Shown piece after piece: positions 8,477-26,329 of a stretch of 64,000 nucleotides of DNA (within the stretch, counting starts at the first letter, position 1; every line of letters begins with the position of its first letter). Under the pieces are notes generated by a model that saw only the letters and a program-made list of their open reading frames with translations, had not been told where the DNA came from and did not search any database. The stretch comes from a virus, in IMG/VR virus record IMGVR_UViG_3300035681_000001, positions 96,001 to 160,000 of that record, one strand, 5' to 3'. Position numbers and translations under genes: made by a program.

Positions 8477-9058
8477 ATGCACACCCCCAGACTAATAGCA
8501 GTAAGGACAGAGCTAAATGAAGCTCTGAAAAAAGTTAAAGAAGTTACTTTTTCAGCAGCTGAAGACTGTTTGTACATAAACCAAAAAAAGTTACCTCTAA
8601 ACGCTCCAGCCTTAAAGGATCCAGCATTTGTCAAACGCTGGGCTCTAGCTCGCATCCTACTAAATGAACCTGTCCTGAATGAAGAAAAACTAGTTGCTTC
8701 AGCGTGTATAGAACAAATAATAGAAACACAAGTAGACCGGGCACTTATAAAACAAGGTTTTGTAAGGTGGACTTGTTGGGGTAAAGCTAGGTCTTTAGAC
8801 CTAAAAGAAGCGCCTGCAGAACTTTGGTTGGTAGCAGCCAAAGCACTACAAGAAGGGTACGTACTTAAAGAAGCTGTAGGTTCGCACTTTTGGGTAACAG
8901 CCCCTTCGGGCCTACAGCATGTAACTACTTTTAGGGAGTGTAACTGTGTAGAATTCTCAAGGCGGCATGAATGTGTACACCACCAACTTGTTCTTGCAGC
9001 CCAAGCTAAGAGGAGCTTATTCCTCCAACACCAATTAATTGAACAATGCTTCCTATGA
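8477..9058 (+). CDS. SWIM zinc-finger protein
   Basis: C-terminal 'ECNCVEFSRRHECVHH' fits the SWIM pattern CxC-xn-CxH, preceded by a beta-strand segment (FWVTAPSG). Confidence 0.7.
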   Translation: MHTPRLIAVRTELNEALKKVKEVTFSAAEDCLYINQKKLPLNAPALKDPAFVKRWALARILLNEPVLNEEKLVASACIEQIIETQVDRALIKQGFVRWTCWGKARSLDLKEAPAELWLVAAKALQEGYVLKEAVGSHFWVTAPSGLQHVTTFRECNCVEFSRRHECVHHQLVLAAQAKRSLFLQHQLIEQCFL

Positions 9059-9660
9059 TTAGCGCAGAAGCTCTTAGCTTACTGAAACCTAGAATTGTAG
9101 AAATTGAACCTGGCTGGGCTCCTAGACCAGCTAACCAAGGTGATGTCGGGGCGGACTTAAAGCTGTATATAGAACCCGGAGAAGAAGAATACTACTGTGA
9201 CTGTGTATTAACTCCTAATTTAGTAGTTGATGGAAAACTAGTAGAAGACTACTCTGCCGCTCAAACTTTAATAGATACTAGTCGTATCGTAGTCTTGCAA
9301 CCTGGCCAAACTAGGATCTTCAATGCGGGCTTTAAGATTGCCGTAAATGCCGTTGCTAGTCTCGCACCTCTTATTCCTGTCTACTACATAGTTAGTCGTT
9401 CTGGGTTATCCACCAAGTTCAAAGTATCTGTCACCAATCGTCCAGGTGTTATAGATCCCGTAACGTATAGAGGTTGGGTAAAAGTCTCGCTGGAAAACAC
9501 CGGTGTGTGCACCCACGTTTTTACGCACGGTGCAAGAATCGCTCAAGGTATTTTACAGTTAGTAATTGACCAGTCTTACTGGTCACCGGAAGAACTAATC
9601 GTAGAATCTTTAGAAGAAACTGTTCGTGGTACCGGCGGCTTCGGGTCCACAGGGGTGTGA
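9046..9660 (+). CDS. dut: Trimeric dUTPase
   Basis: All five motifs present: GADL, SRSG, GVID(PVT)YRG, RIAQ, RGTGGFGSTG. Confidence 0.95.
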   Translation: MLPMISAEALSLLKPRIVEIEPGWAPRPANQGDVGADLKLYIEPGEEEYYCDCVLTPNLVVDGKLVEDYSAAQTLIDTSRIVVLQPGQTRIFNAGFKIAVNAVASLAPLIPVYYIVSRSGLSTKFKVSVTNRPGVIDPVTYRGWVKVSLENTGVCTHVFTHGARIAQGILQLVIDQSYWSPEELIVESLEETVRGTGGFGSTGV

Positions 9661-9661
9661 G

Positions 9662-10126
9662 ATGTCAATAGAATTCATTAAAAAAGAAGGATTGGGTGAC
9701 ACCTGGGCTGAGTACCAAACCAGGTTTCCGTCACTACCAGAGTTTTACTTCAAAACTCTGCAATATCCTACTAGCTGCTCTAAAGCCGAGGAGCTAGTAA
9801 GACTAATCCAACTTGAAATGAATTCTATTGATGCTCAATTCATAGAACGTCGAGTAGAACTGGAAACAGTAAACACAGCCCAAAAAGACTCAGTTACCGC
9901 AGAACACGAACGGTGGAAACTAAAAGCCTTAAGGGCAGTGAGGATGAAAGCTGCACAAATACAAATACTGCAAGCTTGGATAGCAGATAACTCAAAAACC
10001 CACGAAAGCCGCTTTACACAACTTGAGTCTGAGTTATCTGCTTTACGTAAGGCCTTACTAAAGCTGGTATCGTCAGTAGAAATCTCAGACTCAACTTATT
10101 GTGAAATTATTAAGCTGCTGGCTTAG
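9662..10126 (+). CDS. Hypothetical coiled-coil protein
   Basis: ATG at 9662 directly after the dut stop; heptad-like helical content. Confidence 0.6.
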   Translation: MSIEFIKKEGLGDTWAEYQTRFPSLPEFYFKTLQYPTSCSKAEELVRLIQLEMNSIDAQFIERRVELETVNTAQKDSVTAEHERWKLKALRAVRMKAAQIQILQAWIADNSKTHESRFTQLESELSALRKALLKLVSSVEISDSTYCEIIKLLA

Positions 10127-11567
10127 CTGGCAACCTAGCTTGACGATTAGGCATACTATTTCCAGTAGGACGACCTCTACCACCCGTACCGCCCTTACCT
10201 GTTTCATCAGCACCAGGTTTAGGTAGTAAAGGATTAATAACTACCTGTTGAATAAATCGCAAATCATCAGCATCCATCTTACGATCTGACAACCTAACCA
10301 TCTGCCTAACCATGTCCCAATCTTGCGGGTTAGTAGGGTTTAGGTAACCAGTATCAGTAAGACCTTTAACCATTTGCATGGTAGCCACGCGGTCTTCGGG
10401 ACGATCTGAATAAACCCTAGTAAAAGTAGGGGGTATCTTTGCAGAAGCTCTGCTGAAGTTCCACTCTACTAACGGCATCATTACTTTACGCAACACCACT
10501 GAGGTTAAGTTCCGGCGGTGAGAATCTAGAGCATTGTAGTAAGCTTCCATGCGGCGCTCTTTAGCTTCAGGGTCAGCTTTACTATTAGCTGCTTGGTGAT
10601 CTGAAATTAAGAAATAAGGCAGAATGTGTTTGGTTGACTCTTGGTCGGTATAGGCAATAGCATCTAAGAAAGTAGTTCCTACGTTATCAAACAACGGAAC
10701 TGAATTTACTGTAGGTTTGTTTTCTGGGCTCTGCTGAGGCAAAAACAGAAACTCAGGAGGACCTTCGATGTTCTCTAGTTGCTCCCTAACTAGATCCAAA
10801 GTAGTAATAGGTTTTTGTTCACCAGTAGAAACGTCCAGCCGTTTTTCAGGTAACTCGTAACTAGGGATAGAAATAGAAGTCATACGGGACCCAGTTTTAT
10901 CCAACGCGGCGCCCATCATGTCAATAATGGCTTCTTTTAAGCGATACCACTTGTAACTAGGAGCTATCAACGATCGACCGTAATAATTACCGTAGTCAGA
11001 CTCATTAGCTAAATAAAGGGTCTTCCACAGCGGCAGCTTTACTTCAGCTTGCAACGGGTTCAAACCTACTTGGTAAAAACCTGATTTATGGTAACCATCC
11101 ATAGTAGGCTTACCCTCTGTCAATCGCCCGTGCTTGTCTGGGTAAATCAAGCACGTTGAAGGGTGGTAGGTTAGCAAGTCATGCAAATACAACTGCCCAA
11201 ACTTGAGATCAAACATTACCTCCGTAAGAGAATATCCAGCCCAAAAGCTAGTGTGCTGGATAGTAGACAAACAGTTCTGCCAAGACCTACCGTGTTCGTC
11301 TTCTAGTTGTTTTATGTTGTCGTTTAGAAATTCAGCTATTTCTGGATCAGGGTGAGTTAGTTCACCAATAGTCCCTACTATGGAATTAACTTGTGTGTGC
11401 AGAGCAGTTTTGATAGTTAAGTCTTGTCTCCACATTCTTTCATAAAGCCTTAGCCTAGCTATTAAAGGTCGGCGTATAGCATCTGTTAAAGAAAAGCTGC
11501 CTAGTTGTGCAAACTTACCCCGAGCTGCACTCTTAGACAAATAACTTAGATCTCCAGATACAGGCAT
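10110..11567 (-). CDS. Portal protein (DUF935 / Mu gp29-like)
   Basis: LYERM..D..IKTAL, GYSLTEV, YGNYYGRSLI, ALDKTG motifs; 485 aa. Confidence 0.85.
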   Translation of the reverse strand: MPVSGDLSYLSKSAARGKFAQLGSFSLTDAIRRPLIARLRLYERMWRQDLTIKTALHTQVNSIVGTIGELTHPDPEIAEFLNDNIKQLEDEHGRSWQNCLSTIQHTSFWAGYSLTEVMFDLKFGQLYLHDLLTYHPSTCLIYPDKHGRLTEGKPTMDGYHKSGFYQVGLNPLQAEVKLPLWKTLYLANESDYGNYYGRSLIAPSYKWYRLKEAIIDMMGAALDKTGSRMTSISIPSYELPEKRLDVSTGEQKPITTLDLVREQLENIEGPPEFLFLPQQSPENKPTVNSVPLFDNVGTTFLDAIAYTDQESTKHILPYFLISDHQAANSKADPEAKERRMEAYYNALDSHRRNLTSVVLRKVMMPLVEWNFSRASAKIPPTFTRVYSDRPEDRVATMQMVKGLTDTGYLNPTNPQDWDMVRQMVRLSDRKMDADDLRFIQQVVINPLLPKPGADETGKGGTGGRGRPTGNSMPNRQARLPAKPAA

Positions 11568-12118
11568 TAGTTAAAAGCGCGGTGCATAGACTCGTTGGCT
11601 CTACCAAAGTTTAAATTAGACCCTACATTCATAGAATCTAACTTAAACTGTTGTTCTTTTTCCTGTTGAGCACGACGAACACGTTCAGCGTGCTCAGTGG
11701 TTTCTTTTAGTATCGCATCCATAATAACAGTTGGGTAGCCATATTGTTCAACCCACCAATCACTACCCAACCAGTCCTTCAAGCATACTGACCCACCTAA
11801 AGCTGTAAATTCACGTATACGGTATTTATTAGTGTAGTGCTGTAAGTGCTCTAGCTTTACTAGTTCTTTGTCCAAAATAAACTGGTTGTATTCTTGTTCT
11901 GTCCAACCAGACCAGGGGCCGAAGCCCCACCAGTCTGGGTGAACTGAAGTAGCTCCGTAAGTAGCTCCGTAGTAGTCAAACTCTAAAGATTGAGGTACTG
12001 GAGGTACGTAGTTTAAGTAAGGTATCAGTCCTGAGTTACTACCAAGGCTGAGCGAGTAGTACCTTTCGCTTTTGATTCTGGTTTCACTGACCCACCGCGC
12101 CGACCTAACTGCTTTCCC
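11567..12118 (-). CDS. Tail assembly chaperone GT extension (-1 frame product)
   Basis: The 11567..11875 ORF stays open upstream to a G GGA AAG heptamer at 12118-12112. It has no ATG in that extension and is closed by a -1-frame TAA at 12127-12125. Confidence 0.75.
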   Translation of the reverse strand, partial: GKAVRSARWVSETRIKSERYYSLSLGSNSGLIPYLNYVPPVPQSLEFDYYGATYGATSVHPDWWGFGPWSGWTEQEYNQFILDKELVKLEHLQHYTNKYRIREFTALGGSVCLKDWLGSDWWVEQYGYPTVIMDAILKETTEHAERVRRAQQEKEQQFKLDSMNVGSNLNFGRANESMHRAFN

Positions 12119-12792
12119 AGGGTCTTAGCTGACTCAGTTTGAGCATCATCAATAGTAAACATATTGATGAAAATCAAGTTAGCAACTTGAACATCCATAA
12201 TAGGCAGTGGATCTAAAATAGCCACTGGGTCTTTTTTAGCAGTACGATCAATTTCTACTCCATCAATATGCGTGATGCAAATCGACATCAGCATTTCTTC
12301 CAAAGAACACCCGTTAGTTTCAGGACCTTGGTGACTGCGATCAGCAGACATCTGAGTACCAGTGTTGGGCCTAGTAAAAGTTACTGTATGTAAGTTAGAA
12401 GGCAAAAAGTCTTTAGCTAGGGTGTAACTAAGAGTAGGGGCACCCAACGCAAGGTTTTGTGCTTGTTGTCTAGCCACTCGTGCTTCAGCAGGAGACATAA
12501 AGTAACCTTCCATAAAAGCAATCAGCAGAAACTGTTTGTCTTCAATGCTGAGGTTGCTAAGCCGGTCGATTACATCCCGAGCGTTATTATCAAATTCTTT
12601 ACCGTTAACACCTACAAAAGAAAGAGCAAACAGCAGTTCTTCTACGCTGTAACCTGGTGAAGGCTGATTCTGACCAGGGTAAGGATAACGCTTGCGGGCT
12701 TCTCTCCAATCCCCAAAAGTCGGTTCCTTGAGTAGGATAGAGAAAGACTTAGAAGGAATCTGATCCTTCTCAATGGTAATCAGCTCGGTCAT
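12025..12792 (-). CDS. Tail assembly chaperone (gpG-like, two internally repeated domains)
   Basis: Repeats 'LKEPTFGDWREA..YSVEELLFALSFVGVNG' and 'FTRPNTGTQMSA..CSLEEMLMSICITHIDG'. Slippery GGA-AAG (Gly-Lys) near the 3' end; adjacent to the giant gene. Confidence 0.75.
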   Translation of the reverse strand: MTELITIEKDQIPSKSFSILLKEPTFGDWREARKRYPYPGQNQPSPGYSVEELLFALSFVGVNGKEFDNNARDVIDRLSNLSIEDKQFLLIAFMEGYFMSPAEARVARQQAQNLALGAPTLSYTLAKDFLPSNLHTVTFTRPNTGTQMSADRSHQGPETNGCSLEEMLMSICITHIDGVEIDRTAKKDPVAILDPLPIMDVQVANLIFINMFTIDDAQTESAKTLGKQLGRRGGSVKPESKAKGTTRSALVVTQD

Positions 12793-12853
12793 GTTCAATT
12801 TGGTTAGTTTAGGGGCCTAGACCCTACCTAATCATACACCTCTAATTTACTGA

Positions 12854-15800
12854 ATGAACCCAGAAGAAAACCTAGATCTAAATGACGAACTAGACTCTGA
12901 GCTAGGGGAACTAGGTGGCGAGGATTCAGTAAAAGACCAAATAGCAGACGAGCTAGAAGGTAAGCACGATATTGCTGACGGTGACCACCAAAGCTCAGTC
13001 AAAGAATTCTTTCGTATTTACGACATTAAGGCTGGTGATCCTTTTAAAGCCGTAGAACTAGAAAGTACTGCATTCTTAGAAAAGGTAACAGCGCAAGAAC
13101 TACAAAATGTCAATCGGCTTAATAAACAAGAAGATCAACGAGCAGCAATTAATAAAACTCTAGAGACGTACCGAGAAGCACAGTCACAAATCACACAGCT
13201 GCAAGGTAACCGCTTAAGACAGTCACTGACTGCTTACGGTCACGCTATAACAGAACGCAGCGGAGGTTACATAGGACCTCAAACAGGCCTAACGTTCAGG
13301 GCTAGAACTGAAGACTATTTAGCCTTTAGTAGATCACTAGGTACCAGCCGGCTGGATATGGCTGTGTTCCAAGTACAAAACCAAGAACTACTAGGTGGTT
13401 TTTTGCGCGGTGGTGTGCGGAAATTGCAAATAACCACTCAACTAGATGAACCTATCGCGGCCTCTAGTGAAAGTGTTAGTAAGTGGTACGAAAACGAAAA
13501 ACAGAGATTTGGTATTACAGGGCCTAACGAAGTACTAGCCAGTGCTTTTAGGAATAGCCCACACTTAGGCCGAGCTGAAGTAACTGTGAGTGGTAGTTAT
13601 ATTAAAAAACCCAACGACACCCAACGCGGCTTGATGCACGCCAAAATAGCTGCTTTGTATGAAGGAGACGAGACAAACCAAAAACTAGTAGGTGCTTTTA
13701 TAGGCACACAAAACTTTACTAGAGCTCTAGCCAACACACGTACTGAAGAAGAAACTCTGTTTATCTCCTTAAAAGGAGATCAAAAGTATCTTGACGGTCA
13801 AGATCAACTAGAACGAGGTCGCGCACTGATCAGACAAAGAATAGCTAACGAGATAGCACTAGTTACTGAAGGAATCAGAGAAAACTTTACTGAAGCTCGT
13901 ACTAGTAGGCAACTAACCACAGACATAGACCGCAAACTGCAAAGAAGAAACGTAAGCTACGGTACGCACGTGTTGCCAGTAATAGGCGAGATGCTCAGTA
14001 CCGCTGTTACTGAAAAGAGACACGTGCTGTTGAATATGCAATATATAGAAAAGTTCTTAGCTGCTGAAGGAGAACACGAAGGTAAAATCTACGGCAGCTT
14101 AGCCACACTAGCCGCCGAAGGTCGCTTAACAGTAGCTGTCTCTGAGACCAGCTTAGCTAAAGGTACAGGCTATTACTCTTTAATGGACCAAGTAAGAAAA
14201 GATACGGTCAACAACACCTTAATACAAACACTGCTACAAAAAGATGCTTTTGCAGTGCTACCAACCAGGTTCTTACACACTAAAAGCATTGCTATTTTTG
14301 GAGACTCAACGCTAAGTAACTTAGTTGAGTACGGTATAGGCTCACAAAACCTTAGTGAAGAAAAATACACCTCCGCAGAATTAAACTTTGAAACTTGGGT
14401 CCGGTTAACTCAAGGTGGTCTGCCAGGAGACCTGGAAGACGAACTAACTGCGTTGGGAGTACACAGGTCTAGTGGTCAACTAGCAGCTACAGCTAGAACT
14501 CGCTCGCAACTATATGTAGACCGCATGGGGTCTGCTGCACAAGTAGCAAACTTAATAGACAAATTGGGTGAAATGGGTGGAGCCGATACACATTTGTTTG
14601 ACACACTAGAACCTGGAAAAAGGTTTAAATACAACGTTAGGTATAAGACTCCCAGCTTGATTCCAAACCTAGCCCAAAACTCAGCCCGATCAATAGCTGA
14701 AAAGGCTATGTCTGGTGTAGATATCTACCTACCTAGTGCTAACAACTACCGCTTGAGCGCGACCATAAGTGAAGAATATACTCACGACCTTAAAAGAAAA
14801 ATGCCGGTGGTTTACCTAAACACCGGCAACCGTATCATCACAGGTGCTATCTATCGTATAGCACGAGACCTAGAAGGTCAGGTTATGCTGCCTAACGGCA
14901 AAATAGCTAAAGCTGGAGACACCATAAAACTTGGTGCTCTAGAGGTATTCCAAAGTTTTATTGAAACCGTAATCAAAGCCACTGAGTACGAACGTAACTA
15001 CCGAGCGCCGGTACTGGTACTTAGGTCCATGGGTGTTGAAAAGCTAAGTCGATTTATTGACTCAGTACCTGGAGACCCGCAGGGTAAAAGAGACTTACTG
15101 TACCAACTACTAAGTCCAGAAAATAAAGGACAGCAAGCGCAAGGTTCACTAGAAGCTATACGACTATTACAATCCGTAATACGAGCTGACCCTACCGGCC
15201 GACTGCAGCGGATGGAAGCCGGGTTTGTGTCTACTGGTATTAGAAACGTAGTATCAAATATCTCAGCTAGTTTCTTACAACCACACGAAGAACTTTACTC
15301 AGGTGGGCACCTGACAGCAATCATGCCTATATTTGGCATGGACAATACCATATTCAGTAAGCACTTTAGTGGTAACTCCGGCACCGCTTTACTAAACCCT
15401 TACAAGCTGTCTCACTACGACTTAATAAACACCGGCGGGTTGGATTTATTCCGTGGAGTACAAGATTCTACTCAAATACGTACTACTAACTGGCAAGACC
15501 TAGAAGGAGGGTTGTACCACTCAGAAGGCGGCCCTACCAAAGTAACTGACATAGCCCAGTTCATCAGATCTACTAAAAATATGGCTGTTATTAATGAACA
15601 GTCGTTAAGAGAGTCTCAAGCGTTAGGGTTGACCAGCAACATACAGCTCACACCTGGTACTAATTTATACGTGATGCCTTACGGCAAGGCAGAACAAATT
15701 TCCGCTCGCTTGAAAAACAAAAAATCAGAACGGGTACTGCTAGAACCTAGTGACGAGCTGCTGAAATTCATACAACAAGGAGGCCGGAATGCTAATAACT

Positions 15801-18800
15801 TAATCCAAAACAACAACTTAATCAGAAATGCAGTTTCAGTAGACTTACCACCTGAGCAATTTGCTATCTATCGTCAGATCCTGGCAGAACAAAGAGGTGA
15901 TACTCAAAAAACTCTAGAAATACTACGTGAAAGGCAATCCAACCCTTTAACTGCTATGCAAGGGTTGTTAGGTGCTAGTCAGTATCAAAAAGTACTGATC
16001 TCAGCCGGTTTTAGTATGCAGTCTGATTTCTCGTACTTTAATGAAAAGTATCTAGACAGACCCTTAGTAGACCAAACCATAAAGTCTTACTCTTTTAGCA
16101 GCGATAACGTAGGCTCAGCTTTAACGCTAGCCAGACAAGCTAAAGAAAAACTCCGTAAGGGTACTATATTCCTAGCCGAGGACATAGACCTAGAAGATTA
16201 CTCTAGGCTAGTAGGAGGAGAAAGCTATTCCGACGCTTTTGTAAAAGCGTACCTAGTTAAAAGCGAAAGTACTTATTCGTGGGGTGAAAACGTAGATGCA
16301 GAAACCAGAAAACAACTGAACAAAATGGTGTTTGTGGATCTTACTGATCCTGCAAAACCCATACTAAAACTTAAAAAGGGTGTTTACTACAACGACAGCC
16401 AAGAAATACTGGGTCTACAAAAGATCGGTAAAATGAACTCTACTTCTCTAACCTTTACCATTGACGGCCTAGAGGTACAAAGCAGAGAAAACCGCAAGCT
16501 CAGAACCTTCACTCTACCGCTGGATAACTCAGCTATTTCTCGTCGAGCTCACCGATCTATAGCTGTGTTAAAAGAAGATGCTATGGTCAGCCAACAAGGA
16601 CCCAACGTACGATTAGAAGCTACTTACAGTACGTTGCTGTTTGGTCAAACCGGGATGCGTACGATAGGAGCCAAAGGTCCTATCTATTCCGTGATGGAAA
16701 GTTTCTTTGAAGGACTAGCTAAAAACAGAGGTTGGGATAACAGCGCTGTAGCAGTAATAAACCCTAGTCAGATCAAAGACTATAACTTCGGAGACGGGTT
16801 CTCTAAGCTGTCTGATAAAAACCACTTTTTAAGAACTGGTGCAGCTGACGCTGACCAACTAGAGTACTTTAGGCAAGGTCTGCAATACCTAATAGACACT
16901 GGTAGGAACACTGAAAAAAACCTACTAGCACGTGGCGGCCCACTAAAGTGGGGTTGGGACATATATGAACTTTTAGGAGACTTAGAGCTTAACGAAATAC
17001 AACAAATCACCACTGAACAAGCTGCAGAAAAACTCAAAAGAGTACAGCAGTTTAGTGCAAAAATCTATGGTAACAAAAACTACTTCCAAGGCGGAGCCAT
17101 AGTATCTAACACATTAACTCGCGGTCTGAGCATACTAGCCACAGTTAGCTCTCAAGCTGAAGACATCGCCACGCAAAAAGAACTGTATTTAAGTAGAAAA
17201 AAACCGGGTGCACTAGAAACAGAAATAAACTACGACAGTGTGGCACTACAAGAATACCTCTATGACTCGCAGAACCCTCGTAACCGCACTAGGGAATCCC
17301 AAGCTTTGATCTTTGGTATAAATCTAAGGAACTTAAGAGAAAACGAATTAGCGGCAGCTTTCCAATTAATGGAAGCTACGTATGGTAACAACATAATGCT
17401 ACGAGCAAACATAGACTTGAGTTTCAGCCGGATTGCCGTTTCGATGGGCATGAAAACTGAAACCAAACTAGAAGCTGCCTACGCAATGGCCATGACTCAA
17501 AACCAGCTAAAAGCGTACACTTACCAAAAAGGCGGCGCTGAAGGCCTGCAAGGTGCGCTGGTAATGCTGGCTCAGTTAAACAATCGTGTAGTAAGCACTG
17601 ACGCCGTAAGCAGATACTACTCATTTGCACAAGAAACAAACTTACTAGAATTTGGTCTTAAAGAAAAAGCCAAAAAGTCTAAAAACTGGAGGGATCAGTT
17701 AAGAGCCAACGCGTTTGTGGCTGCTTTTACGAGTAAGTACTCCATATACTCCAGACAAGACCTGGTTGAAATAGAAGAAGACCGACAGCGCCGAGTCAGA
17801 GAGGAACCTATCAAAAGTTTGGTAGACGAATTTGAAAGAGGATTGTACAGGGACATAATCCCTAAAACTGAGCTGCTAACTGCACCTACTAACATTCTGT
17901 TAAACAGAATGGAAACCTATGGCGGCATCATGAGTTCTGGAACAGTAGAGCAAGCCGCTAAAGCAATGATCGAACAGTTAAAAATAGTTAGAGGTACAGA
18001 GTTTAGAGCAGGTATGCAGCAAAATTACGGAAAATTAGAATCAGGGAAACTCACTAGTAAAAAAGCTGGTGCTAAAAGGTTTACAGAAAGTGGCAGCTTT
18101 TATAAGGAGTGGTTTTACTCAAAAGAAGCAAAATCTGATCGTTTTACTTTTACTAAAAGCATAGAAATACCATCTAATATATTCTCTCCAAAAGGGCTAA
18201 GTGAAAACTTTTTGCAATATGCAGGGTCTTTTATAGAAGAACGGTTAGGTAAAGGAAACCTACTTAAAATTACGAATTATGTCCAACTGCTAGATACTAT
18301 AAAAAAAGCAGAAACTACTCCAAGCGGGTCGCTAACATTCAAAAGTTACTACGAAAAACGCTTCAGAGAAACTTTTGATACTCCAGAGACCTTAGAGTAC
18401 TACACAAACCTAATAACTAAAAGCCGGGAACGCATTTCTAGTAACGATGGCTCAGAATACCTAGAATCCATGCGCTCCCTGGCTCTTTATGCAAAAAAAG
18501 ACTCAACACTAATGCGCACCGTACAGCAATCTCAGTTGCTGCACCTACCTATGTTAGAAATGACTGGTAGCGGTGACTCGCTAAGGTACCACCTGTCAGA
18601 TCAAGTAGTAAGTGGTGCCAGGTACGGTCTGGACATCCTAGAGCAAATTAGCTTAGTGTTCCACGGCTACAGCTCAAACATTTTAATAGAACAGCGTAAT
18701 CTACAGTCTTACTTAACAGAAGCCATCCGCAGTGGGTTGCTAAAGAAAATAACTCAAGGGATCCAGCAAGGAGAGGCTTACCAAGGCTTAGACCTAAATG

Positions 18801-21800
18801 CTAAAGAAGTAGAACTCTATCAAAACCTAGTAAACACTTTAGGTAGTACGCCGCAAAGCATTCAAACACTGTTTGAAGCTAAAGACGTAATGCGTCAAAG
18901 TGAAGGCGACCGCCTCAAGATGTCAGGTACTACCTTTGTAGGTATTAACAGTGCCTTAGTAGCTGTTAAGGACTTGATATTAGGTGACCAAATCGAGCAT
19001 GTTTTTAACACTGGAGGCACCAAAGGTACTGAAGGGTTAGCTCAAACTTTAATAAAAGAACTAAACGCAACTAGCAAACGCGCTCAAGAAGCTACAAACC
19101 AAGCTCTAGCCATAAAAAGACTGTACTTAGTCGACAGCGGCTTTAGTGACCTACCTACCGAACAAAGCTTTAAAACACAAAGCAAAGCACTAAAAGAAAT
19201 AGCAAGCGAATGGAAAACAGCCGGTAAAGATAAAGAAGCCAGAAAAGTACACGAGCTAAGGTTCTACGAAACTATGCTAGGTCTGAGTGCCGGAGACCTA
19301 AGTACAGAAGAAAAACTAAAAACCCACACTGAGAAATTGTCGTCACTATACAGAGTAGCTAATGCAGTTCGTACTGGCGCACCTTACGGCATAGCACAAG
19401 ACTCAGCTTTGATTCCAGTACAAGTCAAGGGTTTAGACGCTTTAAAAACCGCTGGTACCACTACTGGTACGTTGTTGCAGCCAGGCAGGCACAACACCAC
19501 AGCTATGATCAGCTCTAGTTTGTCGTATATGTTTACGCAACTAGGAGACTACGACGGGGATACTTTCCAAGTAGCTTTTCCTGCAATAGTACAAGAACTA
19601 GCTAAAATAAAACTTACTCAAAACAAATTAGCCAGCCTAAAACCAGGTACCGAGGCCTTTAAAAACACTTCAACAGACCTAGTTGATTTACAAAAACAAC
19701 ACACTGAAGCCATAAATGCACTTACTGGACACCTGCAGAACATCGCAGAAATGCAAAAATCTGCGCTGCAGCGGTTTAGTTCACGTTACTACGGCTTCGA
19801 TAAAGAACTACTGCGATACATGACCAATGAAGAACTGCAGCACCTTAGCTTGCAGTTCCGGGATACTATGTCAGGTTCAGACAAAGGAGCTGAGTACGTC
19901 AATGAAAGCTGGCGGCTAATCACTAGGTTAGTAAAAGCTGCTGAAGCAGTAAATCCCACTAAGCTACTTGACTACGGAACTCTATTAGAGGACTTACAAC
20001 TCACTGATGGAGAACTGAAAAAAGACCTAGCTCAGGCTTTGGACCCTGAAAAAAAGTTCACAGAAATAAACGGATTAACTGTAAGAGAGTACATAAACCA
20101 GCTGCAAATCCTTAAAAACGCAGAATTTGCAGAAACTAACGTCCGCAGCATGTTAAAAAATAGTATGGGTACTGTACTAAGCGGCGTAGAACTAGAAACC
20201 CTAGGTGCTGTAGTAGGTACTACTGGTATGGGTATGCTCGGAGTTACCTATAATTCCGTCACACCTTTGATGGAATTAGTACAAGGTCAAGAAATGGCCC
20301 AACGGGCTTTGAGTAAGCCTGAAGGTGATTCTTTGTTGCAAGGCTTAGTCAACCAAACTCAAGCAGCACTCAATACGACAGTAAAACTAGAAAAAAACCA
20401 ATTAATCAAAACACTAGACCTACAAGTAGGCATAGCCCATAATTTCTCCTTGACCACGCAGCAATTCATGCGTGATGCTGCGCTGAAGCCTAAGCAAGGC
20501 GGAGGCATACTACAGCTAGCTGCTGAATATAAGTTAAGTGAAAAGCTAAAAGAAGCTGCTAACAGTCAAACAACAGAAGAACTAAAAAGAACTGCAGTAG
20601 AACGTACTCTAAAAACTTTCATTAATACTAAAGTAGGCTCTCAACTGGGCGTAGGCAGTGCTAATAATTACAGTGCGTTCGCAGCTCTAACACTAGTAAA
20701 TGAATACTTAGGTAGTAGACTCACAGCCGAAGAAATAATAAATGATGGTATGCTAAGCAGCTACCTACAGAACAAATGGAGAGAAAACCGAGACCTAACA
20801 GCAGACCGACTAGTAGCTACCGAAATAACAAAATTACATAACCTGTTCAAAATAGACTACGTAACCAACCACATCCTAAAAGTAGACTCTAGTGTAAACG
20901 GAGGTGTACAAAGGCTAGTAGAAGTAATTAAACAGACTGCTTATGGCCAAAGTGTTAAAAATGCGGGGTACGATGACGAAGCTTACGTTAAAGGTTACCT
21001 AGACCAGCGGTTTAACAGCAAAGAATACACCGAAGGTTCAGTAGACCTACTAATACAAGGCAAACAATTTAGTCAAGAACTCCAAAAAATAGCCGCAGGA
21101 GAAAGTCCTTTAATAGGTGCTTTAGGTAAAGGTGTTTCTCAGTACCTAGCTGCAGCTACGCTGCACAACCGTAAAGGCGGAGACCAAACCGCTCGTCTTA
21201 ACTTGATGAACCAGCTAAGAACTAGTTCTGACAACTTTTACGAGAACTTTACCGAAAACGTTACTTCTAAAAAAGAAGAAACCTACAAAGCTGCTCTAGC
21301 TATAAGTGCTGTAAGTGGTCTGCTACCTATAAAAATTGCATCAGCACTTCAAAACGCTACCCCCGAGCAAAGAGGTAAGTTCTTAACTTCACCTGAAGTT
21401 CAAAATTACATAAACGCTACTTTAAGAGAGTCAGGAACCATAGCCACTGGTGTAACAGCAAACGAGCAGCAAATGCGTTTGTTAAGGCAAGTACTAAATA
21501 CTGACACTAGTGACAGCGGTACTATTCAACTTCAAGCACTATCAAGAGGTGCGGCACCTATTTCAGGTGTTGCGGAGAACCCAGAAATTGAAGCACTGCA
21601 AAGAAGCATAGACGACGTATGGGCTAAAACAGAACCTATAATGGCAGCAGAAAACCAGCAACGAATTGCAGAATCAGAAGCTCGGATAAAAACTGAAACT
21701 ACTAGGTTAGTAAAAGCTCATCGTAAGGCTGAAATATTCTCAATACTAGCTGTACCCGCATTGTTAGCTACTTTCTCAGGACAAACCCTAAAACCAGAAG

Positions 21801-22489
21801 AAATAGGCTCTATAGCCACCAACGTATTCCAAGCTGGATTGATGGCTACCAGCTTTAACAATTCAGCAGTAGGTCAGTTCTTAGCTCCTGATAAAGTAGA
21901 CGCTAAGTCCATAAAAGTCCTAGCTGAAGCTGATCGAGCTATGCAATATACCCGGTTGCGGGAGTTTGTTAGGTCTAATGAAAACCCACTAACGGGAGTA
22001 GCCCAAGCTGCTGCTTTTGAGGCTTCAGGTAGAGCTGCCAGTCATGCCGCTGCGTTGTTAATACAACGTGCAGCTCCTAGGTTAGCTGAATCAAGCGCAG
22101 GTCGAGGTACCACTGAAGTCTTAGGCGGGTTATTAGGCTTAGCTGTGAGCGGTGTATTAACCAACCGACCTATAACTGGATTAAATGAAGGCATGGGTTC
22201 AGTAGTAACCTACGCCGCTGCGGCCCTACAAAACCTACAAATTTCACTACAAGAAGCTCAAAACCGGTATATGTCTTCTTATTTAGATCCAGAAGATTCT
22301 ACTGAGATGTCCTTAAGCATATCAGGAGATACTGATTCCAGCGTTTACCCTTCAGAGCTAGAACTACAAGCTAGGACAGGCTGGGATCCCAGAGTAGAGC
22401 TCTATGATCCAGTAGCTTTTGAAGGCACTATAGATATAGAACCCCAATTACTGGGACCTGATTCCATTGAATCTATAAGCCTCGGATGA
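12854..22489 (+). CDS. Giant virion protein: N-terminal PLD-like nuclease + single-chain two-barrel RNA polymerase + hydrophobic C-terminus (putative virion RNAP, possibly tape-measure-fused)
   Basis: HAK(262-264)..GTQN(284-287) and HTK(475-477)..GSQN(496-499); MRTIGAKG(1268-1275) followed by AVINP; RTGAP(2173) upstream of QLGDYDGDTFQV (D2232/D2234/D2236); hydrophobic helices near the C-terminus; located in the tail module. Confidence 0.65.
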   Translation: MNPEENLDLNDELDSELGELGGEDSVKDQIADELEGKHDIADGDHQSSVKEFFRIYDIKAGDPFKAVELESTAFLEKVTAQELQNVNRLNKQEDQRAAINKTLETYREAQSQITQLQGNRLRQSLTAYGHAITERSGGYIGPQTGLTFRARTEDYLAFSRSLGTSRLDMAVFQVQNQELLGGFLRGGVRKLQITTQLDEPIAASSESVSKWYENEKQRFGITGPNEVLASAFRNSPHLGRAEVTVSGSYIKKPNDTQRGLMHAKIAALYEGDETNQKLVGAFIGTQNFTRALANTRTEEETLFISLKGDQKYLDGQDQLERGRALIRQRIANEIALVTEGIRENFTEARTSRQLTTDIDRKLQRRNVSYGTHVLPVIGEMLSTAVTEKRHVLLNMQYIEKFLAAEGEHEGKIYGSLATLAAEGRLTVAVSETSLAKGTGYYSLMDQVRKDTVNNTLIQTLLQKDAFAVLPTRFLHTKSIAIFGDSTLSNLVEYGIGSQNLSEEKYTSAELNFETWVRLTQGGLPGDLEDELTALGVHRSSGQLAATARTRSQLYVDRMGSAAQVANLIDKLGEMGGADTHLFDTLEPGKRFKYNVRYKTPSLIPNLAQNSARSIAEKAMSGVDIYLPSANNYRLSATISEEYTHDLKRKMPVVYLNTGNRIITGAIYRIARDLEGQVMLPNGKIAKAGDTIKLGALEVFQSFIETVIKATEYERNYRAPVLVLRSMGVEKLSRFIDSVPGDPQGKRDLLYQLLSPENKGQQAQGSLEAIRLLQSVIRADPTGRLQRMEAGFVSTGIRNVVSNISASFLQPHEELYSGGHLTAIMPIFGMDNTIFSKHFSGNSGTALLNPYKLSHYDLINTGGLDLFRGVQDSTQIRTTNWQDLEGGLYHSEGGPTKVTDIAQFIRSTKNMAVINEQSLRESQALGLTSNIQLTPGTNLYVMPYGKAEQISARLKNKKSERVLLEPSDELLKFIQQGGRNANNLIQNNNLIRNAVSVDLPPEQFAIYRQILAEQRGDTQKTLEILRERQSNPLTAMQGLLGASQYQKVLISAGFSMQSDFSYFNEKYLDRPLVDQTIKSYSFSSDNVGSALTLARQAKEKLRKGTIFLAEDIDLEDYSRLVGGESYSDAFVKAYLVKSESTYSWGENVDAETRKQLNKMVFVDLTDPAKPILKLKKGVYYNDSQEILGLQKIGKMNSTSLTFTIDGLEVQSRENRKLRTFTLPLDNSAISRRAHRSIAVLKEDAMVSQQGPNVRLEATYSTLLFGQTGMRTIGAKGPIYSVMESFFEGLAKNRGWDNSAVAVINPSQIKDYNFGDGFSKLSDKNHFLRTGAADADQLEYFRQGLQYLIDTGRNTEKNLLARGGPLKWGWDIYELLGDLELNEIQQITTEQAAEKLKRVQQFSAKIYGNKNYFQGGAIVSNTLTRGLSILATVSSQAEDIATQKELYLSRKKPGALETEINYDSVALQEYLYDSQNPRNRTRESQALIFGINLRNLRENELAAAFQLMEATYGNNIMLRANIDLSFSRIAVSMGMKTETKLEAAYAMAMTQNQLKAYTYQKGGAEGLQGALVMLAQLNNRVVSTDAVSRYYSFAQETNLLEFGLKEKAKKSKNWRDQLRANAFVAAFTSKYSIYSRQDLVEIEEDRQRRVREEPIKSLVDEFERGLYRDIIPKTELLTAPTNILLNRMETYGGIMSSGTVEQAAKAMIEQLKIVRGTEFRAGMQQNYGKLESGKLTSKKAGAKRFTESGSFYKEWFYSKEAKSDRFTFTKSIEIPSNIFSPKGLSENFLQYAGSFIEERLGKGNLLKITNYVQLLDTIKKAETTPSGSLTFKSYYEKRFRETFDTPETLEYYTNLITKSRERISSNDGSEYLESMRSLALYAKKDSTLMRTVQQSQLLHLPMLEMTGSGDSLRYHLSDQVVSGARYGLDILEQISLVFHGYSSNILIEQRNLQSYLTEAIRSGLLKKITQGIQQGEAYQGLDLNAKEVELYQNLVNTLGSTPQSIQTLFEAKDVMRQSEGDRLKMSGTTFVGINSALVAVKDLILGDQIEHVFNTGGTKGTEGLAQTLIKELNATSKRAQEATNQALAIKRLYLVDSGFSDLPTEQSFKTQSKALKEIASEWKTAGKDKEARKVHELRFYETMLGLSAGDLSTEEKLKTHTEKLSSLYRVANAVRTGAPYGIAQDSALIPVQVKGLDALKTAGTTTGTLLQPGRHNTTAMISSSLSYMFTQLGDYDGDTFQVAFPAIVQELAKIKLTQNKLASLKPGTEAFKNTSTDLVDLQKQHTEAINALTGHLQNIAEMQKSALQRFSSRYYGFDKELLRYMTNEELQHLSLQFRDTMSGSDKGAEYVNESWRLITRLVKAAEAVNPTKLLDYGTLLEDLQLTDGELKKDLAQALDPEKKFTEINGLTVREYINQLQILKNAEFAETNVRSMLKNSMGTVLSGVELETLGAVVGTTGMGMLGVTYNSVTPLMELVQGQEMAQRALSKPEGDSLLQGLVNQTQAALNTTVKLEKNQLIKTLDLQVGIAHNFSLTTQQFMRDAALKPKQGGGILQLAAEYKLSEKLKEAANSQTTEELKRTAVERTLKTFINTKVGSQLGVGSANNYSAFAALTLVNEYLGSRLTAEEIINDGMLSSYLQNKWRENRDLTADRLVATEITKLHNLFKIDYVTNHILKVDSSVNGGVQRLVEVIKQTAYGQSVKNAGYDDEAYVKGYLDQRFNSKEYTEGSVDLLIQGKQFSQELQKIAAGESPLIGALGKGVSQYLAAATLHNRKGGDQTARLNLMNQLRTSSDNFYENFTENVTSKKEETYKAALAISAVSGLLPIKIASALQNATPEQRGKFLTSPEVQNYINATLRESGTIATGVTANEQQMRLLRQVLNTDTSDSGTIQLQALSRGAAPISGVAENPEIEALQRSIDDVWAKTEPIMAAENQQRIAESEARIKTETTRLVKAHRKAEIFSILAVPALLATFSGQTLKPEEIGSIATNVFQAGLMATSFNNSAVGQFLAPDKVDAKSIKVLAEADRAMQYTRLREFVRSNENPLTGVAQAAAFEASGRAASHAAALLIQRAAPRLAESSAGRGTTEVLGGLLGLAVSGVLTNRPITGLNEGMGSVVTYAAAALQNLQISLQEAQNRYMSSYLDPEDSTEMSLSISGDTDSSVYPSELELQARTGWDPRVELYDPVAFEGTIDIEPQLLGPDSIESISLG

Positions 22490-22965
22490 CTTCAGCCCGT
22501 ACTGAAAACTTTAGCTACCAAACGTTAGCCTATATGGTAGGTAGGTCTTACGTGCTGGGCATAGGAAAAACTTCAAGCTGGGCTGTAGAAGCGGCACCAC
22601 CTAACGTGGATCCCTCAATAACTGAAGTTCCGGAGTTAGGATTGTTAATACCTGCTGCTTTAACAGCCGTTTATTGGGATCCTAACGGACTTATAAGTGT
22701 AAACGGCGTGCACTACTCAACAGCTAACAACCTAGCAGATATAACCACTAACCACGCTACTAGGCTTTTGGCTACAGCTACTTTAAGTCACAACAACCTA
22801 ACCCTAGCTAGCTACCGTGCGTTAGGATTGTATCTAGCTAGTCCTAGTGGTGTGGGCCCTTGGTTACCTGCTGCGGTGACTGCTAGGACATTAGTATACG
22901 CAACGTACCAACCACCTACTACAGTTACGGCTAATTTGACAGAAAACATAAAGCTGGTCTTCTGA
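22486..22965 (+). CDS. Putative baseplate wedge subunit
   Basis: 'YVLGIGKTSSWAVEAAPP' resembles the T4 gp8-like wedge motif; 4-nt overlap with the giant gene. Confidence 0.45.
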   Translation: MTSARTENFSYQTLAYMVGRSYVLGIGKTSSWAVEAAPPNVDPSITEVPELGLLIPAALTAVYWDPNGLISVNGVHYSTANNLADITTNHATRLLATATLSHNNLTLASYRALGLYLASPSGVGPWLPAAVTARTLVYATYQPPTTVTANLTENIKLVF

Positions 22966-23801
22966 TGCTGAACTATACAGACCAATCACTGCTGGACTAC
23001 TTCCAACCCTTAGCTGGTGAAGTTTTAAGTGCTACCACCGGTCCAGCTAGTACTCCAGCCCAGCTAAAAGCTGAAGCCGTGGCCTCGGCTGCCATTTGGG
23101 CTAAAGAATACACCACTGCTTATGACCTTACACGGCTACCACAACTAGACGCCAAAGCGCTAGCAGCTCAAGAAAAGTCCTTTGAAAAAGCTAAAATAAC
23201 AGCTCGGCAAAACAGAGATTCTGGTACCGAAGACTTTTTCAAGATCCTTTACACCAACGTAAAAGGTCAAAAGAAATCTTTCGTGTTTGCTTTGTTACCT
23301 GCCATAGACCTAAGCAGTCGGGGTGTAGGGAACTCAAACGTACCCGACCTAAAAGCTGGTGTAGTAATAAGAACTTCTATGCGTCAGAAAAACATTCCCA
23401 TACCAGGTGGTACACCCATAATTCAAACCATAGGGGTAGACAGCACTATTATGCAAGTGGTGGGGGCTTTCATCGGCAGTGAGAGAATAACTAATCCAGC
23501 TGACTCCTCACGTGGGGACCTAAGTACTATTTATACTGGCTTACAAAACCTTAGTACTGCAGAATCTTCAGAAACTAAAGCACGAGCTTTTATGTCTGAA
23601 GTTGTACACTCAGGTCGGCCGGTAGAATTCCACGCTAAGTCAGTATCCCGTACCAGTGATAACCCTAAAGCTAAAGCAGAAGGCATGGAGCTAAAATACA
23701 AAGGCGTAATAGTTAACTTCAAGTTTTATGCTGCTAGGCGTAACCGCAGCTACTACGCGATAGACTTAATCTTAAGTGAATATGACGTTAATAAAGCATG
23801 A
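22965..23801 (+). CDS. Putative tail tube initiator/baseplate hub protein
   Basis: 'IPIPGGTPIIQTIGVDSTIMQVVGAFIG' resembles tube-initiator/gpU-type proteins; position in the tail module. Confidence 0.4.
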   Translation: MLNYTDQSLLDYFQPLAGEVLSATTGPASTPAQLKAEAVASAAIWAKEYTTAYDLTRLPQLDAKALAAQEKSFEKAKITARQNRDSGTEDFFKILYTNVKGQKKSFVFALLPAIDLSSRGVGNSNVPDLKAGVVIRTSMRQKNIPIPGGTPIIQTIGVDSTIMQVVGAFIGSERITNPADSSRGDLSTIYTGLQNLSTAESSETKARAFMSEVVHSGRPVEFHAKSVSRTSDNPKAKAEGMELKYKGVIVNFKFYAARRNRSYYAIDLILSEYDVNKA

Positions 23802-24766
23802 CCTTAAACGCCCGCGCTGATTATTTATTTGGTCCGTTTGGAGGCTACGAGGGCGCCTTGGAGCTTTGGGGTCTAGAAGACCTGCAAGAAATGGTGCAAT
23901 TCTACGGATATACAGCTTACCTAACACCTAGACAAACAGTGATAGAAGTACCCGTTACTGAAGGTTCACCTCCTATCACCACTATCAAAGACGTAATAAC
24001 ACCTGTACCTAATAATTCTTGGGAAGACTACGGCTGGTTGCCCGGTACACCCATACAAATTCTTAGTCGAGATTACTCACAAATCATAGAAACCGAGCTG
24101 CAACAAATACCTTACACTGACCGTTGGTGTTGGGGTGTATCAGAAGCCCAACGAGCTTGGGTAGCTTCTAAACCTCATGGTTCTAGGTGGTGGGGCAGAA
24201 TACAAACCGCTAACGGGTTTAGGGTGTTGCAACTCTTAGTAAACCTTAAAATACCAGGAGTTGCAACACCAGAGCCGCCTGCTACCGCACCAAGTAACGA
24301 GGTAATCTTGCAGTTGGGTAACTACCCTAAGATCCGGTTGCATTTAGGGTCTACCACACTAATAAAAAGTGCCGGCGAGTACGTTTACTGGAAGCCTCAA
24401 GGTAACGAGACCTTAAGTTACGAAGCTGTACTAACCAGCCCCGGTTACGATTTAGTAGGTAAAACCCTAACCGCAGCGGATACTTTACTAGTAGCTGCAG
24501 GTTTGACCCGACAACCTAACGGTTTAATCTACACTCGCACCGGAACCACAGAACTTAAAGTTACGTTAGGAGTGTCCAATAACATAATAGTTACGTCAGA
24601 AGAAGACGCTTGGGTACCACTTAATTTGTCTGCGGTTATGGGTACGGAATCTTGGAGACTAAAACAAACCGTTACCGGTAAAGCGGTATTTGAATCTAGG
24701 TCCCGTTTAAGCGGGTTAGGTTGGACACCCGCTGCTAAGGCTAGCATCACAGCTTTAATAAGTTAA
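23798..24766 (+). CDS. Hypothetical structural (baseplate-region) protein
   Basis: 322-aa ORF, translationally coupled to the previous gene. Confidence 0.5.
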   Translation: MTLNARADYLFGPFGGYEGALELWGLEDLQEMVQFYGYTAYLTPRQTVIEVPVTEGSPPITTIKDVITPVPNNSWEDYGWLPGTPIQILSRDYSQIIETELQQIPYTDRWCWGVSEAQRAWVASKPHGSRWWGRIQTANGFRVLQLLVNLKIPGVATPEPPATAPSNEVILQLGNYPKIRLHLGSTTLIKSAGEYVYWKPQGNETLSYEAVLTSPGYDLVGKTLTAADTLLVAAGLTRQPNGLIYTRTGTTELKVTLGVSNNIIVTSEEDAWVPLNLSAVMGTESWRLKQTVTGKAVFESRSRLSGLGWTPAAKASITALIS

Positions 24767-25017: not shown

Positions 25018-25294
25018 CTAAAGAACAACTAGGGTACTGGGGTTCTAGCAAAGCAGTCCAAGCTTTAGTACCGTCATCACTAAGAGAAAGTACAGCAGAA
25101 GACTGCACCACTACACCTGGGTAATGAAAATACAACGCTTCAGAGTCCTTAGTAACAGACAACCCACAAGGGTGTGTTATTACTACTCGACCACCCGCAC
25201 GAGTAACGCGTAGTCTGAAAAATTGCCTTAAAAGCCAGAACATCAACCTACCAACGTAGTAACAGAACCTGGTCCGGTAACCAGACCAGCGCAT
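24965..25294 (-). CDS. Hypothetical protein (start uncertain)
   Basis: ORF between the PAAR gene and the RHH-like gene, overlapping both. Confidence 0.35.
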   Translation of the reverse strand: MRWSGYRTRFCYYVGRLMFWLLRQFFRLRVTRAGGRVVITHPCGLSVTKDSEALYFHYPGVVVQSSAVLSLSDDGTKAWTALLEPQYPSCSLVAPDALVQLRSADRCST

Positions 25295-25539
25295 GAATCA
25301 GCATCACCCACTCGTATTACCAAAGCACCCCCTATAAAAGTACAGGCGGTACTGGGATACAAACTCGTAGGGTCACCGCACACCCCTAGGTCCCCAGCTA
25401 CTACTGGTACCTTACCACTTACTAAAGTAGTAACCGACCGCCCGTACACTATGCTACCCGTAGGTGACCAAGTTCCTTCAGGAGGATGAGGACAACCCGG
25501 ACAAGTTAGCGAGTCCCCCACTAGAGCTAATGGTTTCAT
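25243..25539 (-). CDS. PAAR-like spike-tip protein
   Basis: 98 aa: 'ALVGDSLTCPGCPH', 'VSGKVPVVAGD', 'GGALVIRVGDADSC...VTGPGSVTTLVG', with Cys/His metal ligands. Confidence 0.8.
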   Translation of the reverse strand: MKPLALVGDSLTCPGCPHPPEGTWSPTGSIVYGRSVTTLVSGKVPVVAGDLGVCGDPTSLYPSTACTFIGGALVIRVGDADSCAGLVTGPGSVTTLVG

Positions 25540-26329
25540 CGCGTACCCAAAAAACCCATTCTACAAAGTAGTCTCCATCAACTATAGCAGCTAAATCTCC
25601 CTTACGACCTAAAGGCGCTTCGTAGGGACCAAACTCACCTACTACCCTTAAGTCCAACAAGTCACCAGTAGGTACCGGAGGGATACCTGTTGAGTTATAG
25701 TGAGTTTCTAAAAAGCGCTCTAGTAACACCGGATATTCACCTAGCCCAGCTTGTGGTAAACGTGAAGTATTAGCGGCACCACCTAACGACGTAACAAACG
25801 AAGGTGTTCCCGGAGCGTTGATTAAAGCAGTCACCTGAGCCCTTAAAGCGCCAACACGGTCGATACTAACTACAGACCCACCAGTAGGGTCTAGCACCAC
25901 CGGCCACCGGGCGTCCCACACTAAGTCAGAAGCTGTAGGTACGGGAATACCAGCCCAAACATACCCAGTAGTAGTACGAGTGTAGTAACCTTCAAAAGGC
26001 AACGCTAAAGGATCCGGTGGCGGGTAAACACCTCCCACTATAGGAGTAGTAACGTAAGTATACGAGTCTAAATAGAGCTCTAAGTCCACCGCATTACCTA
26101 AATGCCTAAAAGCTGCGCCGGCGGAACGAGTGTAGTTAGCTGTTAAGTAAACAGCTATGTTCTCAGGCCCTAAAGTAAATAACGGTGAATAAACTAACGC
26201 CGCAGCCATAACTGACTCAGACCGCGCCGGTACGTAAGGTAGTTGAGGGTAAATAAAACCCTCACTAACAGCCGCCAACAACCTAGAGTGTAACCCCGGC
26301 GGGTCAGTATTAATAGGGTAATAAGTCAC
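25478..26329 (-). CDS. Hypothetical virion-associated protein
   Basis: 283-aa Pro/Tyr-rich ORF co-oriented with Dps and PAAR. Confidence 0.5.
   Translation of the reverse strand: MTYYPINTDPPGLHSRLLAAVSEGFIYPQLPYVPARSESVMAAALVYSPLFTLGPENIAVYLTANYTRSAGAAFRHLGNAVDLELYLDSYTYVTTPIVGGVYPPPDPLALPFEGYYTRTTTGYVWAGIPVPTASDLVWDARWPVVLDPTGGSVVSIDRVGALRAQVTALINAPGTPSFVTSLGGAANTSRLPQAGLGEYPVLLERFLETHYNSTGIPPVPTGDLLDLRVVGEFGPYEAPLGRKGDLAAIVDGDYFVEWVFWVRDETISSSGGLANLSGLSSSS

Follow-up and report, generated by a model that had tools for sequence, protein, structure and literature searches.

We describe here a giant open reading frame (ORF) encoded on a 64,000-nucleotide stretch of viral DNA (the window; bases 96001-160000 of the 189,763-bp IMG/VR record IMGVR_UViG_3300035681_000001, with an estimated completeness of 96%), whose product we give an even chance of being a tail-associated, injected two-barrel RNA polymerase (RNAP) headed by a PLD-like region and akin to gp96 of the Thermus phage P23-45. 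The phage is a myovirus and a distant relative of the Microcystis phage Ma-LMM01, and its major head protein (5161-6483, minus strand) shares about 30% identity with the counterparts in Ma-LMM01, the MaMV phages, and the Microcoleus phage My-WqHQDG. The ORF in question is:

12854-22489, plus strand: giant ORF, open over 3,211 codons, with zero cysteine residues, belonging to a family of phage proteins of 3,000-4,500 amino acids (aa).

The frame is open throughout, and all the peptides quoted from it in an initial annotation, which was made from the sequence alone and proposed a virion two-barrel RNAP, are present. Motif conservation, polymerase-like flanks, and the tail context speak for that proposal; no structure or profile search recovered a polymerase.

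Exhaustive and word-based searches yielded about 20 relatives of the giant protein, of 3,000-4,500 aa plus some fragments, on records of 125-205 kb; none of them is annotated, and two later word-based searches gained only one extra relative (P0021). The relatives are collinear along their entire length at identities down to 20%, and an alignment of 12 family members (21-30% identity) retains only about 60 invariant columns. These columns cluster at H262/K264/N287, H475/K477/N499, P942...R960, G1267/R1269/K1274/G1275/P1276, R2014/G2025, R2173/G2175/P2177, G2231/D2232/D2234/G2235/D2236, G2455...P2471, and Q2536...K2547. A family hidden Markov model (HMM) additionally detects, at E 4e-50 and over five collinear segments, gp080 of Ma-LMM01 (3,562 aa, with GDFDGD at aa 2537), which keeps most of the invariant clusters, and a truncated giant at the start of the My-WqHQDG record (E 4e-30, GDFDGD); both adjoin portal and head genes. 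The link to Ma-LMM01 was reached only via the family HMM and the My-WqHQDG protein, direct tblastn having missed both, and tblastn with aa 1000-2500 of the giant protein against 50,697 phage records gave zero matches.

The candidate catalytic barrel comprises an acidic loop and blocks ahead of it:

18893-18943, plus strand: block R2014-Q-xxx-GDRLKMSG2025-TTFVG, with R2014 and G2025 invariant.
19370-19384, plus strand: RTGAP, 59 aa ahead of the Asp triad, with R-x-G-x-P invariant in the family alignment.
19544-19582, plus strand: acidic loop GDYDGDTFQVAFP, with invariant G-D-[YF]-D-G-D; GDYDGD occupies aa 2231-2236 and contributes D2232, D2234, and D2236.

The Asp-loop block tops the conservation scores across the 3,211 aa (4.3), and GD[YF]DGD is invariant in every homolog covering the region (about 20 giant relatives plus gp080 and the My-WqHQDG giant). 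The initial annotation had staked its proposal on conservation of the Asp triad, which is thus observed in all relatives, gp080 included. Its RTGAP lies at 19370 as given, whereas its motif coordinates need adjustment: DYDGD (aa 2232-2236) corresponds to nucleotides 19547-19561, position 19544 is G2231, and the 15-mer it quoted spans 19529-19573.

For comparison of motifs, validated enzymes (P23-45 gp96 and gp64, phi14:2 gp66, and E. coli beta and beta') were read from their own records. In four real two-barrel polymerases, a hydrophobic strand precedes R-x-P, and 35-39 aa later comes [GAVS]-D-[FY]-D-[GI]-D, trailed by V at +4 and P at +6/+7. The giant protein, in which R-x(1-3)-P likewise stands behind a hydrophobic strand, displays R-T-G-A-P, 59 aa, and G-D-Y-D-G-D-T-F-Q-V-A-F-P, with V at DGD+4 and P at DGD+7, the latter matching beta' and gp66. 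The R2014 block resembles, by eye only, beta' FRQNLLGKRVDYSGRSVI in the first half of the catalytic barrel; that motif is located at aa 344 of rpoC, and a scan with position-specific scoring matrices (PSSMs) did not put the R2014 block there. No second ORF with D[FY]DGD and no PF00623 match was found elsewhere in the phage genome, that is, no rival polymerase candidate.

A candidate partner barrel is encoded farther upstream in the ORF:

16652-16798, plus strand: candidate beta-like second-barrel motif, G1267-x-R1269-xxxx-K1274-G1275-P1276 followed by AVINPSQIKDYNFGDG (aa 1300-1315).

Within it, G1267, R1269, K1274, G1275, P1276, K1308, and G1315 are invariant in the family alignment. Parallels are seen in rpoB (GRHGNKGV...IVLNPLGV), gp64 (LKLKGP...ILLSP), and gp96 (GLKGTVIVDP): in beta, gp64, and gp96, a K-G is followed by a hydrophobic run terminating in [SND]-P, and the giant protein has an invariant K-G-P with AVAVINP 26 aa downstream. 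As K1274-G1275 is the sole invariant K-G in the protein, this supports the initial annotation's placement of the KG motif (MRTIGAKG at 16655-16678, followed by AVINP at 16751-16765, both present). For the same reason, a second barrel just upstream of aa 2010, as in gp96, was rejected.

Two further conserved regions were compared with beta and beta' by eye:

15677-15733, plus strand: block PYxKxEQISxRLKNxxSxR (aa 942-960), with invariant P942, Q948, R952, N955, and R960.
20204-20494, plus strand: near-invariant LGxxxGxTGxGLLGxTYNxxxP (aa 2451-2471) and QQFMRDAALKPK (aa 2536-2547), with invariant G2455, G2458, G2463, Y2466, P2471, Q2536, Q2537, R2540, D2541, K2545, and K2547.

The first resembles the beta-subunit PFxEHDDxxRALMGxNMQRQ by eye only, its top PSSM match in rpoB/rpoC being at another site and not significant. 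Blocks at aa 2334-2341, 2451-2471, and 2536-2547 bear a by-eye likeness to the bridge helix and trigger loop that follow the catalytic double-psi beta barrel (DPBB-A), with G-x-T-G-x-G-L-L-G-K-T-Y-N being trigger-loop-like and RDAALKPK resembling LFEARRPK/FEARRPK. Of the blocks in this region, the one at 2543 alone was put by the PSSM scan on the rpoC site predicted for it (aa 1147, p=0.04). We treat RQxxxGDRxxxSG, the trigger-loop-like block, and the other beta/beta'-like blocks read by eye as leads only.

The giant protein's N-terminal part carries a different signature:

13241-15013, plus strand: PLD-like region (aa ~130-720) with two HKD-type half-sites.
13637-13714, plus strand: half-site 1, H262-x-K264...GTQN287, with H, K, and N nearly invariant, and Q286 too.
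14276-14350, plus strand: half-site 2, H475-x-K477...GSQN499, with H, K, and N nearly invariant.

Like members of the PLD superfamily (HKD), the giant protein has two HxK...G[ST]xN half-sites, here about 210 aa apart, whereas K and G[ST]QN are farther apart in it than is canonical. The protein itself has no Pfam match, and the PLD reading is supported at the level of the family, in which Pfam PLDc_2 matches 4 of 12 relatives (best E 4.9e-6); for the relative P0016, a faint precomputed PLDc_2 match is on record. Another relative (P0011, locus L006) is without the N-terminal PLD region and keeps the remainder, including GDYDGD, which indicates that the PLD domain is separable from the core. A second giant ORF was observed outside the window (G000:C1:63328-75774, minus strand); it is 4,148 aa long and cysteine-free, its HKD site is of textbook form (HAKAGVIDSKLFSGSYN; Pfam PLDc_2 E 8.9e-16, aa 205-335), and it has no DxDxD motif. 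The phage therefore encodes two giant, cysteine-free, PLD-headed proteins. Simple paralogy of the two was rejected, since their similarity is restricted to the HKD site.

The genomic surroundings of the giant gene, together with the C terminus of its product, comprise the following features:

10110-11567, minus strand: Mu-like portal gene, a conserved neighbor of the giant gene.
11567-12798, minus strand: 257-aa ORF with its -1 frame, G/GT-type chaperone-like, with slippery G GGA AAG in phase (plus-strand 12112-12118).
21293-22174, plus strand: C-terminal region of the giant protein with three hydrophobic helices (aa 2814-2832, 2961-2979, and 3085-3107).
22486-24766, plus strand: three start/stop-overlapping genes, the first BW3TFN-like (baseplate wedge) and matching the PHROG "virion structural protein".
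25243-25539, minus strand: PAAR-motif protein, spike tip of contractile machines (Pfam PF05488, 27.1 bits).

The -1 frame of the 257-aa ORF is open for 181 codons, to the portal start. At all five loci compared (the window, L004, L005, L009, and L011, with ORFs of 252-277 aa and giants only 21-30% identical), the heptamer GGGAAAG or AAAAAAG recurs in one and the same phase; the stop follows after 26-35 codons, and the -1 frame is open for 180-193 codons. Judging from this arrangement, the 257-aa ORF and its -1 frame are probably a G/GT-type tail chaperone pair. G/GT tail assembly chaperones act on tape measure proteins, and conservation of the frameshift signature assigns the giant protein to tail assembly. 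Unusually, the pair is read divergently from the gene of its presumed client rather than lying upstream on the same strand.

Downstream, the ATG of the next gene (22486) overlaps the TGA of the giant gene (22487-22489), and two more genes overlap likewise. The initial annotation had described coupled baseplate-like genes here: the overlaps agree with this, while the BW3TFN match of the first gene is sub-threshold (24.8 bits against a cut-off of 27); in the relatives, neighboring genes carry recorded BW3TFN matches. A PAAR gene lies near the giant gene in relatives too, and these keep the order portal, chaperone pair, giant, BW3TFN-like gene, and PAAR. The PAAR gene is itself part of a conserved minus-strand trio beside the giant's operon (25243-26769), together with a 283-aa ORF and a ferritin-like protein. 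On the other side, a plus-strand island with a dUTPase (8477-10126; dUTPase at 9046-9660) is situated between the minus-strand head genes and the portal, and is present in relatives as well. The left edge of the window cuts through the tail sheath gene, after which come a tube-like gene and a baseplate wedge gene. Two observations bear on whether the giant protein is itself the tape measure: a 643-aa ORF comes after the tube gene in this main tail module, and a separate tail-length protein is mentioned in the MaMV-DH01 paper. Elsewhere in the window are genes for an RtcB RNA ligase (57047-58261, plus strand; Pfam E 3e-128) and for a protein with an FGE-sulfatase-type domain (E 1e-53; 55232-56005, plus strand).

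The C-terminal region is conserved across the family, and its hydrophobic helices reach Kyte-Doolittle peaks of 1.33-1.77 (19-mers), with those at aa 2961-2979 and 3085-3107 matching the helices noted earlier at about 21730-22165. Cysteine is absent from the approximately 70,000 residues of the giant family (the giant protein plus P0002-P0021), compared with 1.0% in phage ORFs, and is found once in the 3,562 residues of gp080 and not at all in the 2,623 of the My-WqHQDG giant. In the same phage, we count 28 cysteines in a helicase-bearing ORF of 2,313 aa, 22 in a terminase-like ORF, and 1 in the sheath (1,011 aa). A 2,319-aa ORF at 33720-40679 (plus strand) combines a C-terminal PIF1/AAA_30-type helicase domain (aa ~1870-2080) with a long N-terminal part. 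The position in a structural module, the chaperone neighbor, the C-terminal hydrophobic helices, and the lack of cysteine favor a particle-borne protein over a cytoplasmic enzyme, and the giant protein is probably a virion protein, tape-measure-like or ejected.

Several results weigh against a polymerase. AlphaFold2 models of aa 1849-2699 and 1160-2345, built from 18-20 sequences, reach a mean pLDDT (predicted local distance difference test) of only 62 and 58, respectively, and in both of them pLDDT is <50 at every candidate motif (including aa 2009-2059 and 2157-2243) and no barrel is seen. In the Foldseek check that the initial annotation had also proposed, PDB returned helical-repeat noise only and zero polymerases. 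No polymerase was recovered by a VIA-align search of 48,161 chains (in which aa 2235-2300 matched helical hairpins only), by family HMMs (aa 1990-2570 and 780-1345) against all PDB sequences, or by Pfam and PHROGs in 12 family members, with the giant protein itself matching nothing at all in the latter two. Alignment by hhalign of family sub-alignments to gp96, gp64, gp66, rpoB, and rpoC (single sequences, plus rpoB/rpoC profiles built from about 36 proteobacterial sequences) did not reach significance (P of at least 0.04). When the 24 best-conserved blocks were scanned as PSSMs against E. coli rpoB and rpoC, 2 of the 24 fell on the sites assigned by eye (the Asp loop and the ARRPK block), so that most of the by-eye beta/beta' parallels lack statistical support. 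The motif of the giant protein is R-x-G-x-P where known enzymes have R-x-P, and the candidate barrels lie about 960 aa apart, a separation that to our knowledge exceeds that of any known single-chain enzyme. Finally, the Ma-LMM01 transcriptome paper gives sigma70-like promoters to all three gene classes (PMC5780444). In addition, phmmer of the giant protein against PDB found nothing, complex prediction of the two candidate barrel regions gave a partner fold of low confidence, and an ESM-Atlas feature search with aa 1160-1345 produced a weak beta-helix lead (scores ≤0.90, low recognition). The ESM-Atlas search with aa 1880-2320 named no family other than tape measures, as weak leads. Validated phage two-barrel polymerases are, however, just as invisible to sequence methods: P23-45 gp96 (5,002 aa, tape-measure-fused) and phi14:2 gp66 were recognized by DxDxD alone, and no sequence similarity of theirs to other polymerases is detectable (PMC10770324). 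Because the AlphaFold models cannot be relied on at just these motifs and every structure or profile search came back without a polymerase, we regard the two-barrel polymerase interpretation as a good but unproven hypothesis.

It is quite possible, if on balance doubtful, that the giant protein is instead a virion, tape-measure-like, or ejection protein in which PLD is the sole enzyme, and that GDYDGD is a Ca2+/Mg2+ site of another fold, either structural or belonging to a different nucleotidyl-transfer or hydrolytic center. The failure of every fold and profile method to recover a polymerase is in line with this, as are the long helices that make up most of both AlphaFold2 models, as in tape measures, and the tape-measure families that are among the nearest named clusters in the ESM-Atlas search with aa 1880-2320 (0.83-0.84, a weak lead only). 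The chaperone and baseplate surroundings would account for the gene without any polymerase, and GD[FY][DN]GD also looks like the Ca-binding loops of FG-GAP/VCBS repeats. The acidic loop is single and not repeated, however, and it is the best-conserved element of a protein otherwise drifting to 20% identity; it is moreover accompanied by other invariant Arg, Lys, Gly, and Pro motifs typical of an enzyme center, and its flanks mirror those of four validated polymerases.

That the giant protein is a two-barrel polymerase (RNA or DNA) made after infection and acting in the cytoplasm, neither packaged nor injected, appears improbable. P23-45 does own such a non-virion two-barrel enzyme, gp64, beside gp96 (PMC10770324), and mass spectrometry is still called for in the MaMV-DH01 paper; yet the giant gene sits inside a structural module with late-type neighbors and adjoins the tail chaperone pair, and its product has C-terminal hydrophobic helices and zero cysteine, much like the sheath and unlike the cytoplasmic enzymes of the phage. 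A chance match in a long ORF, of no particular function, carries a negligible probability: by our own estimate from residue frequencies, D[FY]DGD arises by chance in about 0.3% of proteins of this length, and this explanation is already refuted by the invariance of the motif in every relative, gp080 and the Microcoleus phage giant among them.

Under the two-barrel polymerase interpretation, the giant protein would be tripartite, with a PLD-type phosphodiesterase at the N terminus, a very diverged two-barrel core, and membrane-active helices at the C terminus. In the core, the GxRxxxxKGP/INP barrel (aa ~1170-1320) would face the RxGxP...GDYDGD barrel (aa ~2010-2245). At infection, the protein would exit the virion with the DNA and its C-terminal helices would enter the host membrane, while the core, with catalytic Mg2+ on D2232, D2234, and D2236, would transcribe the first genes of the incoming genome without the host polymerase. 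We infer the barrel folds, virion packaging, ejection, and RNA synthesis from the observations above; transcription of the entering genome without host polymerase has been shown for gp96 of P23-45 (PMC10770324).

In Ma-LMM01, ten small early ORFs are grouped in one 5.8-kb cluster, host transcription does not change, and the authors leave control of the temporal gene classes unexplained (PMC5780444). These cyanophages are said to encode no RNAP, as stated in the MaMV-DH01 paper, and to depend on the host for all transcription (PMC9927357). In the window, an array of small plus-strand genes at 27300-33100 contains 24 terminator-like sites of hairpin plus T-tract against 8 expected; the hairpin elements lie between the small genes, many being near-identical (AAGCCCCCGGAAACGGGGGCTT TTTTGTGGGC), and sigma70-like sites are rarer than expected. 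This array at 27-33 kb may correspond to gp054-gp063, the early cluster of Ma-LMM01. That Ma-LMM01-like (Fukuivirus-type) cyanomyoviruses and a wider uncultured clade of 125-205-kb phages inject a tape-measure-associated, PLD-headed, single-chain two-barrel RNAP which transcribes a compact early cluster is a broader proposal, for which we see somewhat less than an even chance.

If true, this would account for a three-phase programme that leaves host transcription untouched, and crAss-like gp66 and P23-45 gp96 would be joined by a third, independent lineage of giant injected two-barrel polymerases. Among contractile-tailed phages, it would also be the first virion two-barrel polymerase beyond the jumbo phiKZ-like group, with barrels spaced as in a beta-beta' fusion; it would extend the idea of tape-measure fusion to a myovirus and offer a very diverged enzyme for study of the minimal two-barrel core. 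Should the loop not belong to a polymerase, phages of bloom-forming cyanobacteria would still possess a giant virion protein that is conserved, free of cysteine, and headed by PLD. As Ma-LMM01 and the MaMV phages are cultured, the hypothesis is directly testable.

Among known systems, the closest parallel is gp96 of P23-45, a virion RNAP fused to a tape measure, whose DxDGD loop (DFDGD), like that of the giant protein, was found only by motif (PMC10770324). Both are giant virion-module proteins with hydrophobic or membrane segments farther along the chain, and both adjoin tail assembly genes; the flanks also agree in an RxP-type motif upstream, in V at DGD+4, and in a KG leading into a hydrophobic run that closes with [DN]P. 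However, gp96 belongs to a siphovirus and has an N-terminal polymerase and a metallopeptidase, whereas the giant protein belongs to a myovirus and places PLD first; its candidate barrels are about 960 aa apart versus about 230 in gp96, it is known from sequence alone, and no homology between the two is detectable (hhalign P of at least 0.16, with matches outside the polymerase part). The crAss-like Cellulophaga phage protein phi14:2 gp66, a single-chain two-barrel virion RNAP of 2,180 aa encoded among other giant virion proteins, shares P at +7 after the triad and differs in its DFDID, its podovirus-like phage, and the lack of a PLD domain, a chaperone neighbor, and profile similarity. Neurospora QDE-1, another single-chain two-barrel enzyme, carries DYDGD.

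In E. coli rpoB and rpoC, whose motif positions were verified, the by-eye parallels follow in the same order (GRHGNKG/LNP, RQNLLGKRVDYSGRS, NRAP, NADFDGDQMAVHVP, and LFEARRPK), and the barrel separation of the giant protein is similar in scale to that of a beta-beta' fusion; the two differ in that hhalign and PSSM comparisons are not significant except for the Asp loop and the ARRPK block, and that there is no Pfam RNA_pol match. Within the phages related to Ma-LMM01, gp080 (annotated as "hypothetical protein"), which has orthologues in MaMV-DC, DH01, DL, and CH, is a collinear distant homolog of the giant protein; it carries QQMLRDAIKPK and the HKD half-sites, and its gene likewise diverges from those for the portal and the major head protein. 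In gp080, K1274 is replaced by R and RxGxP by RSPPP, and the protein is beyond the reach of tblastn from the giant protein; coming from a cultured phage, it makes the family experimentally accessible.

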